21,799 nt of DNA from a virus (UHGV-1662791), one strand, 5' to 3'; counted from the first letter of the stretch, positions 1,928 to 3,595 are shown. Notes: generated by a model not told the origin, from the sequence alone. Numbers and translations: made by a program.

Positions 1928-2043
1928 TTCCAGGCTTGCGGGGAGCATCAACTCCGTGCTTTGTCGTTAAATTACCCCGTGAGCCTGATTTCTGACATTT
2001 AACGTCCCGGCCTTTTGTCGGCGGCGAAACATTGGCTATTCAT

Positions 2044-2349
2044 ATGCACGAAAAAGAGAGCCTTGCCGGAGCGTTCTGGCTCGTTTTGCTGATCATCGCA
2101 GGTTGGGGCGGTCTGGTCCGCTACCTGATAGATGTGAAGCAGAGTAAAGCAACGTGGAGCTGGATAAATGCTCTGGCTCAGATAGTGGTATCAGGATTCA
2201 CCGGTGTTATTGGTGGCCTGATCAGCATCGAAAGTGGATTCAGTATTTACATGATTCTCGCGACAGCGGGGATTAGTGGTGCGATGGGTTCGGTTGCACT
2301 GACGTACTTCTGGGAACGACTGACAGGGGTGAAAAATGCAAAATCTTAA
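2044..2349 (+). CDS. Holin, class I (three predicted transmembrane segments), not lambda S
   Basis: About 101 aa from ATG 2044 (ORF track start 2032 is TTG). Three hydrophobic stretches (AFWLVLLIIAGWGGLV, ALAQIVVSGFTGVIGGLI, IYMILATAGISGAMGSVAL) and a charged C-terminus; lies directly upstream of, and overlaps, the endolysin gene. Confidence 0.7.
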   Translation: MHEKESLAGAFWLVLLIIAGWGGLVRYLIDVKQSKATWSWINALAQIVVSGFTGVIGGLISIESGFSIYMILATAGISGAMGSVALTYFWERLTGVKNAKS

Positions 2350-2812
2350 TCCTCAGCGTAAAGCTTTCCTCGATATGGTGGCATGGTCAGAAGGAACGGA
2401 TAACGGACGGCAGAAAACCAGAAATCATGGTTATGACGTCATTGTAGGCGGAGAGCTATTTACTGATTACTCCGATCACCCTCGCAAACTTGTCACGCTA
2501 AACCCCAAACTCAAATCAACAGCTGCCGGACGTTATCAGCTTCTTTCACGCTGGTGGGATGCTTACCGTAAGCAGCTTGCTCTGAAAGACTTCTCTCCGA
2601 AAAGCCAGGATGCTGTGGCATTGCAGCAGATTAAGGAGCGTGGCGCTTTACCGATGATTGATCGCGGTGATATTCGTCAGGCAATTGACCGTTGCAGCAA
2701 TATCTGGGCTTCACTGCCGGGCGCTGGTTATGGTCAGTTCGAGCATAAGGCTGACAGCCTGATTGCAAAATTCAAAGAAGCAGGCGGAACGGTCAGAGAG
2801 ATTGAGGTATGA
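2336..2812 (+). CDS. R: Endolysin, lambda R-type lytic transglycosylase
   Basis: 158 aa; from residue ~7 onward ([55 protein letters not shown]...) it matches my recollection of phage lambda R almost residue for residue; only the N-terminal residues differ. Confidence 0.92.
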
Positions 2813-3270
2813 GCAGAGTAACCGCGATTATTTCCGCTCTGGTTATCTGCATCATCGTTTGCTTGTCATGGGCTGTTAATCATTACCGCGATAACGCCAT
2901 TACCTACAAAGCCCAGCGCGACAAAAATGCCAGAGAACTGAAGCTGGCGAACGCGGCAATTACTGACATGCAGATGCGTCAGCGTGATGTTGCTGCGCTC
3001 GATGCAAAATACACGAAGGAGTTAGCTGATGCGAAAGCTGAAAATGATGCTCTGCGTGATGATGTTGCCGCTGGTCGTCGTCGGTTGCACATCAAAGCAG
3101 TCTGTCAGTCAGTGCGTGAAGCCACCACCGCCTCCGGCGTGGATAATGCAGCCTCCCCCCGACTGGCAGACACCGCTGAACGGGATTATTTCACCCTCAG
3201 AGAGAGGCTGATCACTATGCAAAAACAACTGGAAGGAACCCAGAAGTATATTAATGAGCAGTGCAGATAG
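2809..3270 (+). CDS. Rz: Inner-membrane spanin subunit Rz (i-spanin)
   Basis: 153 aa; N-terminal TM helix ([18 protein letters not shown]) then coiled-coil-like periplasmic domain; matches recalled lambda Rz. Start overlaps the R stop. Confidence 0.9.
3029..3211 (+). CDS. Rz1: Outer-membrane lipoprotein spanin subunit Rz1 (o-spanin), embedded in Rz in the +1 frame
   Basis: 60 aa ORF wholly inside Rz: signal peptide with lipobox LVVVGC, proline-rich mature part ([15 protein letters not shown]); matches recalled lambda Rz1. Confidence 0.85.
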
Positions 3271-3301
3271 AGCTGACCATATCGATGGGCAACTCATGCA
3301 A

Positions 3302-3595
3302 TTATTTTGAGCAATACACACGCGCTTCCAGCGGAGTATAAATGCCTAAAGTAATAAAACCGAGCAATCCATTTACGAATGTTTGCTGGGTTTCTGTTTT
3401 AACAACATTTTCTGCGCCGCCACAAATTTTGGCTGCATCAACAGTTTTCTCCTGTCCAATTCCCGAAACGAAGAAATGATGGGTGATGGTTTCCTTTGGT
3501 GTTACTGCTGTCGGTTTGTTTCCAACAGTAAACGTCTGTTGAGCACATCCTGTAATAAGCATTGCCAGAGCGGCAGAAAACAACATTTTTTTCAT
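3302..3595 (-). CDS. bor: Bor lipoprotein (serum-resistance, lysogenic-conversion moron)
   Basis: 97 aa from the MKKML start (the ORF track's 3643 start is an upstream extension); lipobox LITGC; sequence closely matches recalled lambda Bor. Opposite orientation to the late operon. Confidence 0.9.
   Translation of the reverse strand: MKKMLFSAALAMLITGCAQQTFTVGNKPTAVTPKETITHHFFVSGIGQEKTVDAAKICGGAENVVKTETQQTFVNGLLGFITLGIYTPLEARVYCSK

Follow-up and report, generated by a model that had tools for sequence, protein, structure and literature searches.

The lysis genes carried by the virus UHGV-1662791 raise the question of whether a holin unlike that of phage lambda has been joined by recombination to a lambda-type set of R, Rz, Rz1 and bor, and, if so, how old the joint is and whether it bears on lysis timing. 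The stretch of DNA analysed, hereafter the window, comprises 21,799 nucleotides (nt), and all positions refer to it. An initial annotation, made from the sequence alone, had placed a mosaic lysis cassette at 2032-3595; the listing of open reading frames finds the cassette genes there, and gene content and intact reading frames (holin, R, Rz, Rz1 and bor) are established directly. With a probability of roughly 0.9, the best explanation is that a lambdoid Escherichia coli prophage here carries a complete and apparently functional late lysis cassette, in which a LydA-family holin replaces S at an old and common joint.

The position of the joint is sharply defined by comparison with lambda. In a megablast search, lambda 45510-46809 aligns with 2353-3649 of the window at 94.4% identity. 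Lambda S ends at 45509, so that 45510 is the first base past its stop codon, and the holin stop codon of the window is at 2347-2349; in both genomes, therefore, no more than 3 nt separate the break from the end of the holin gene. A sensitive blastn search (word size 7) extends the lambda match to 2341 and finds nothing further to the left. When the two sequences are forced into a global alignment, identity in 50-nt bins is at noise level (38-64%) before 2350 and 80-100% after it, and in E. coli genomes that lack this holin the homology to R begins at 2335-2353. The suspected recombination junction at the holin/R boundary is thus supported by an abrupt identity break at 2350-2353. The homology step is far beyond chance, and compared with lambda two modules truly meet at this boundary.

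The first residues of R differ because of the way in which the two genes overlap. The R gene begins 14 nt ahead of the holin stop codon, its codons 1-5 are read from the sequence coding for the holin C-terminus, and the divergent part of R is exactly the 14-17 nt that overlap the 3' end of the holin gene. The conserved holin tail (...GTGAAAAATGCAAA...) holds the ATG of whichever endolysin comes next; in several relatives this ATG sits in AAnGATGCAAA / AAAAATGCAAA, and the joint to R is marked by TTAATCCTCAGCG. The proteins that follow the tail begin with MQT... (ST64T gp19), MQIS... (GH24 lysozymes of Klebsiella and E. coli) or, for R, MQNL... or MQTI.... Because the tail carries the endolysin start, the altered N-terminus of R belongs to the holin module and is not an independent change. 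At the other side, the shared holin segment has no fixed left edge: this edge is at 1864 in GF131, at ~1996-2013 in UTI89 and at 1917-2019 in Klebsiella phages. In every case its place is upstream of the ribosome-binding hairpin, which implies that the holin behaves as a single-gene module.

To the right of the joint, the initial annotation's statement that R, Rz, Rz1 and Bor are close to their lambda counterparts proved accurate, with 150/158 (95%), 153/153 (100%), 59/60 (98%) and 88/97 (91%) identical residues, respectively. R differs from lambda R at residues 2, 3, 4 and 6 (MQNLNPQ here and MVEINNQ in lambda, both as given in the initial annotation) and by V15L, A63G, A82G and E157D. Pfam holds no family for the R of the window, nor for lambda R itself, and R was therefore identified through PDB and PHROGs; it matches PDB 1AM7 (lambda lysozyme) with E = 2e-101 over residues 2-158 and 3D3D with E = 2e-99. 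It is a soluble protein with neither a signal-anchor segment nor an N-terminal membrane anchor, and it retains Glu19 (AWSE19G), known from structures of lambda lysozyme as the catalytic residue. These features assign it, as judged from its sequence, to the lambda R-type endolysins. Rz and Rz1, the latter with a VVGC lipobox, have the features of a two-component embedded spanin. Bor has an LITGC lipobox and the features of the Bor/Iss family, and shares 95/97 residues with Bor of PhiR47_2. An NCBIfam scan of all six proteins gave no matches.

The holin matches PF16083 (Phage_holin_3_3) with 77.6 bits (cut-off 28.4) over model positions 2-78 of 78, and phrog_785 'holin' with E = 5e-40. It is 105 amino acids long if translated from TTG 2032 and 101 from ATG 2044, the start chosen by RefSeq (WP_000544528.1), which annotates this holin in strain MB15 and in O157:H7. 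As expected of a holin, it is a small membrane protein with predicted transmembrane domains (TMDs) and a charged C-terminus, encoded in a late operon next to an endolysin gene, which it overlaps by 14 nt. The three hydrophobic stretches of its hydropathy profile and its charged C-terminus would suit a canonical large-hole holin, as a soluble endolysin requires. There is no PF05106 match, whereas lambda S itself scores 105 bits for that family, and a BLASTP comparison with lambda S yields E = 9. The claim that the two holins are unrelated accordingly stands as far as detectable similarity goes, but Pfam names place PF16083 and PF05106 together in holin superfamily III.

Relatives of the holin were collected by tblastn against phages, by blastn and by a scan of one genome per species. 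Amino acid identity is 100% in PhiR47_2, 85-88% in Klebsiella temperate phages, 73-74% in gene 13 of the Salmonella P22-like phages ST64T, ST160, PS3 and L, 66% in Serratia Eta and 54% in Hafnia Meifeng; distant relatives occur in Vibrio and Alteromonas phages, and the species scan adds prophages of Enterobacter, Citrobacter, Dryocola, Klebsiella, Serratia and Erwinia. The gene 13 holins (ST64T, PS3, L) and the Klebsiella, Serratia Eta and Hafnia homologues (54-88% identity) have the same length as the holin of the window. The amber mutation 13am43 of phage L, a classical lysis mutation, is a nonsense codon in its holin gene (PMC8022706), and since the phage L protein is 73% identical to the holin of the window, this gives genetic support for the family as a lysis gene. 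LydA of phage P1, the namesake of PF16083, belongs to the same Pfam family by hidden Markov model, and was not found by tblastn with the holin of the window at E <= 1e-3. P1 has a separate antiholin gene, lydB; unlike P1, the window contains no lydB-like separate antiholin gene.

The partners of these holins bear directly on whether any recombination needs to be assumed. If the holin were a homologue of lambda S that had diverged in place, together with the first R codons that overlap it, the shared superfamily, the common length of ~105 residues, the three hydrophobic segments and the identical register of the overlap with R would all be accounted for. However, identity jumps from noise to >90% within 3 nt in a step-like profile, the BLASTP E-value is 9, and the flanking genes, at 94-100% identity, leave no time for such divergence. 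Moreover, holins 66-88% identical to this one are joined to four other endolysin families, and lambda-S-type holins precede R-type genes elsewhere, as in vB_EcoM-689R6. GH24 lysozymes follow the holin in Klebsiella RAH1, Serratia Eta and several Enterobacter, an M15-like peptidase (23.6 bits, under the Pfam cut-off of 25) follows it in ST64T, GH108 enzymes with a peptidoglycan-binding domain in vB_EcoS-716R3 and Klebsiella pneumoniae ATCC 13883, and a GH19 endolysin in Hafnia. All inspected partners begin directly at the catalytic domain. Shuffling of several non-homologous holins and lysins has been described among P22-like lambdoid phages (PMC2629481). Divergence in place is thus hardly credible. 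As a separate matter, vB_EcoM-689R6 was considered as a relative sharing everything from 2350 onward and was rejected, its R being only 86% identical and its Rz different.

The age of the joint was approached with a 901-nt probe centred on the junction, which was searched against 5426 complete E. coli genomes, a genome being counted as a carrier if the probe was covered over at least 80%. The joint is spanned in 1001 of them, including O157:H7 and UTI89-type strains, with at least 99% identity in eight. The idea that the join is an assembly chimera, for which nothing but the abruptness of the break could be adduced, is refuted by these >1000 independently finished genomes and by phage records. 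The holin itself occurs in 1084 genomes; among the rows sampled, every allele with at least 90% identity adjoins an R-type hydrolase, and ~75 divergent alleles adjoin other lysozymes. Outside E. coli, a prophage of Enterobacter intestinihominis (NZ_JBBMFH010000022, 1489-2270) carries the same joint sequence, TTAATCCTCAGCGTAAAGC, with a holin 75.5% and an R 75.7% identical to those of the window. This equal divergence of ~75% implies that holin and R have diverged together since the joint formed. On these comparisons the joint is ancient and widespread, and it has co-diverged in Escherichia and Enterobacter prophages.

The closest known systems are PhiR47_2 (PV340567), and prophages of O157:H7, MB15 and ~1000 other complete genomes. 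They share with the window the gene order ybcO-rusA-ylcG-Q-holin-R-Rz-bor, with 95-100% identity in this region, and an unchanged holin protein; colinearity extends over 85-3714 in PhiR47_2 and over 85-3649 in the O157:H7 prophage. Their virion modules downstream differ, with lambda-type Nu1/A in PhiR47_2, nohD in O157 and SfV-type HNH/TerS/TerL in the window. The initial annotation had named uniform identity to a single known phage across holin and R as an argument against mosaicism. The combination is indeed not unique, but identity is not uniform: the holin gene is 99.4% identical to those of PhiR47_2 and O157 and the adjacent R only 92.0%, the ~8% of differences lying in patches. As a test of mosaicism the idea was set aside, since finding the combination elsewhere shows age and spread and not a missing junction. 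The combination was already known and annotated; it is very common and represents textbook lambdoid module shuffling.

The patches in R emerge from a table of variable sites. Over 2404-2501 the window equals lambda except at the variable site 2410, and PhiR47_2, O157, UTI89 and GF131 show ~20 differences; over 2506-2611 it sides with PhiR47_2 and O157 and not with lambda; from 2614 on, agreement with lambda returns. R is therefore a patchwork, pieced together by homologous exchange between R alleles after the joint had formed. In the Hendrix/Casjens model of lambdoid evolution, novel joints arise rarely, after which homologous reassortment is frequent, and the patchwork of R fits this picture.

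These observations also weigh on the suggestion that the holin was swapped recently, in this prophage lineage only, under selection for altered lysis timing. Holins are established as the determinants of lysis time (reviewed in PMC9636201), and the contrast between holin and R identities might mean that the holin segment has spread recently. However, the identical joint in so many E. coli genomes and the equally diverged pair in Enterobacter indicate an early origin, the uneven identity is better explained by patch exchange inside R, and nothing links the joint to this particular prophage. A recent swap is thus very unlikely, and an old joint that has since been reshuffled by homologous exchange remains the preferred reading.

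Whether the swap matters for lysis timing is less certain. In dual-start holin genes the longer product, with extra positive charge, acts as an antiholin (PMC9636201), a signature for which PMC3851460 cites Blasi and Young (1996). Nearly all relatives of the holin start with ATG-(GCN)-AAR-CGT/CAT-ATG, coding for M(A)K(R/H)M or, in some cases, MKRM or MRM, with GGAGG 5-8 nt before the first ATG and inside a small hairpin; the record of Serratia Eta carries the remark 'possible dual start motif'. The motif together with GGAGG was found in seven phages, in two divergent E. coli alleles and in 9/10 other Enterobacterales. By contrast, the window, O157:H7, PhiR47_2 and GF131 have TTG-GCT-ATT-CAT-ATG (L/M-A-I-H-M) with GGCGG, and UTI89 and SF-166 begin the motif with the non-start codon GCG. 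Besides the window, all seven sampled sequences of the R-linked E. coli lineage (six distinct elements, UTI89 having been drawn twice) show TTG or GCG in front of A-I-H-M. No lysine or arginine is left in the N-terminal extension of these alleles, and the holin of the window lacks the dual-start signature. The R-linked allele of E. intestinihominis keeps MAKRM, which implies that the loss came after the joint.

From these alleles, the R-linked E. coli lineage presumably makes no charge-based antiholin. It is possible, although we hold it to be somewhat doubtful as a whole, that this lineage of ~1000 genomes has lost a dual-start antiholin, has weakened its ribosome-binding site and times lysis by a single holin made from an unusually placed start. 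That the holin swap is relevant to lysis timing is plausible, and the degenerate dual start is the sole concrete hint.

The same changes could be read as decay, with the cassette as a remnant of a defective prophage and the holin start as a sign of lost function rather than altered regulation. Many E. coli prophages are defective, the upstream ATG has been lost to TTG or GCG, the Shine-Dalgarno sequence is weakened to GGCGG and the R gene of PhiR47_2 carries a frameshift. Against this, no gene of the cassette is broken in the window, Rz is unchanged from lambda, the virion module downstream is complete, and PhiR47_2 was deposited as a complete phage genome, its recorded host being E. coli C. 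Furthermore, the 101-residue holin is identical in MB15, O157:H7, GF131 (WP_000544528.1) and PhiR47_2 despite 2-8% divergence of the neighbouring DNA, which suggests purifying selection. Decay is therefore improbable, if less so than a recent swap, and a working cassette is the better account. In PhiR47_2, R (6637-7112) is recorded as two coding sequences through a 1-nt deletion at the equivalent of window position 2599, which means either that the endolysin is broken or that the sequence contains an error.

Several points weigh against a working, Q-controlled cassette that is both old and common. Promoter-like sites in the spacer between Q and the holin are no more numerous than in shuffled sequence. 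Either of two starts may be used, TTG 2032 being 7 nt and ATG 2044 19 nt from GGCGG. The number and orientation of the holin TMDs are predictions from a hydropathy plot. With its split R, the PhiR47_2 record is no clean proof of a working holin-R pair. Finally, the E. coli collection is clinically biased and rich in O157:H7, and the 18% of carriers is no population frequency.

The candidate expression signals, listed with the other features in Table 1, may belong to a Q-dependent late operon: Q (PF06323) is followed by one promoter-like site and two terminator-like hairpins, with promoter-scan results at or below the shuffled background. By the layout of lambdoid late operons, the promoter-like site and the hairpins may be the equivalents of pR' and tR'. 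Q shares 15.6% global identity with lambda Q, i.e., it is not of the lambda-Q type, and 91% with Q of PhiR47_2. The 310-nt spacer yields no Rfam family (E <= 1) and no tRNA in Rfam and tRNA scans. Relatives of the same holin family do carry tRNA genes at the place that is empty at 1723-2031, namely tRNA-Gly in Klebsiella RAH1, tRNA-Asn in E. coli WCHEC035125, and tRNA-Arg and tRNA-Thr in Hafnia Meifeng. The Shine-Dalgarno sequence sits in a hairpin in each of seven homologues by single-sequence folding, and a consensus structure of 15 homologues has seven pairs, two of them with compensatory changes; z-scores of the single-sequence folds are not significant. Conservation of this hairpin is only suggestive.

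Table 1. Features of the window around the lysis cassette, with positions, strand and the basis of each assignment.
Feature	Position	Strand	Basis or remark
ybcO-type nuclease	211-540		PF07102
rusA	537-899		PF05866
ylcG	896-1036		phrog_2705; named YlcG in colinear records
Antiterminator Q, late-gene regulator upstream of the lysis operon	1033-1722	+	PF06323, E = 2e-95; phrog_304
Candidate late promoter	1706-1734	+	consensus scan only
Two terminator-like hairpins with T runs	1790-1826, 1904-1930	+	consensus scan only
Small hairpin, 3' arm Shine-Dalgarno-like GGCGG (GGAGG in relatives)	2003-2026	+	7 nt upstream of TTG 2032
Holin, LydA-type	2032 (TTG) or 2044 (ATG) to 2349	+	PF16083; phrog_785
Endolysin R, lambda-type lytic transglycosylase	2336-2812	+	PDB 1AM7; phrog_90 endolysin
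Left module junction (end of holin gene, start of lambda homology)	2350-2353		lambda match, alignment, variable sites
Rz, inner-membrane spanin subunit	2809-3270	+	PF03245, E = 3e-54
Rz1, outer-membrane lipoprotein spanin subunit, inside Rz in another frame	3029-3211	+	PF06085, E = 3e-20
bor/iss serum-resistance lipoprotein gene, moron	3302-3595	-	PF06291, E = 1e-30
Right edge of the cassette	3649-3714		blastn, alignment comparisons
HNH endonuclease, then small and large terminase	4121-4471 onward

We infer the order of lysis, the hole size, the roles of promoter and terminators and the consequence of the dual-start change by analogy with lambdoid systems. Q-modified RNA polymerase would read from the late promoter through the terminators at ~1790-1930 into a LydA-family holin gene that, with its own ribosome-binding hairpin, stands in place of S. 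A three-TMD holin would accumulate in the inner membrane and trigger large holes at a time set by the allele, and this timing is probably set by a single holin product, the dual-start motif being degenerate in the R-linked E. coli lineage. The R start and the first 4-5 codons lie inside the 3' end of the holin gene, so that the N-terminus of R travels with the holin. The soluble transglycosylase would then escape through the holes and cut the murein, and the Rz/Rz1 spanin would remove the outer membrane. bor/iss would be a lysogenic-conversion gene with independent expression.

The lambda cassette S-R-Rz-Rz1-bor (NC_001416, 45186-46752) has the same gene order, the same register of holin/endolysin overlap and nearly the same proteins from R onward, and the same mechanism of holin, soluble transglycosylase and spanin is expected. 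Lambda differs in its holin family (PF05106 instead of PF16083) and Q type; the Q-holin spacer of the window is short and without lambda's orf-64, and the M-K-M dual start of lambda S has no working counterpart in the window. The gene 13-type relatives share the C-terminal tail with the endolysin start codon; they differ in keeping M(A)K(R/H)M with GGAGG and in their endolysins (M15-like peptidase, GH24, GH108, GH19). In PLSDB, lambda-identical 'plasmids' of ~3.5 kb or 48.5 kb are recorded from Staphylococcus, Synechocystis, Paenibacillus, Stenotrophomonas and Acinetobacter, almost certainly through contamination of assemblies with lambda control DNA.

Lambda homology stops at 3649 and homology of the PhiR47_2 or phage 21 type at ~3714. 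SfIV-type sequence, corresponding to the SfIV stretch between Rz1 and HNH, begins at ~3709 and leads to the HNH-terminase genes; relative to SfV-type phages, bor is therefore an inserted moron. What remains of the window encodes a virion module of the SfV/SfII/SfI type (97% identity), in which an HK97-like head is combined with a Mu-like tail. The prophage joins this SfV/SfII-type virion module to a nin-Q region of the DLP12/O157-prophage type. In the hybrid, the nin-Q-lysis part (85-3714, in DLP12-like order) meets the HNH-terminase-head-tail module near 3710. The unannotated 525-nt gap between bor and HNH contains a palindrome, TTGTCCAAC-AC-GTTGGACAA, at 3975-4004 with a 13-pair stem; it was scored as terminator-like on the minus strand, and the region is 85% identical to the SfIV Rz1-HNH spacer.

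In a near-identical prophage of the poultry strain MB15, the bor homologue bears the annotation iss (increased serum survival). In 612 E. coli plasmids, mostly conjugative, parts of 2000-3760 are matched at 90-95%, presumably by ColV-type iss regions. The window's bor is an iss-type allele, which matters when avian and extraintestinal E. coli are typed but has no bearing on the question of mosaicism.

The cassette represents a clean and well-delimited case of lambdoid exchange at a gene boundary, and its importance lies mainly in correct annotation, the joint being widespread in prophages of pathogenic E. coli. The apparent loss of the dual start is a modest lead for lysis specialists and would offer a natural allele pair for the study of antiholins and lysis timing. 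If the tentative reading given above is true, the R-linked lineage would represent a naturally antiholin-less form, set apart from its M-A-K-R-M relatives by predictable differences in lysis timing and noise.

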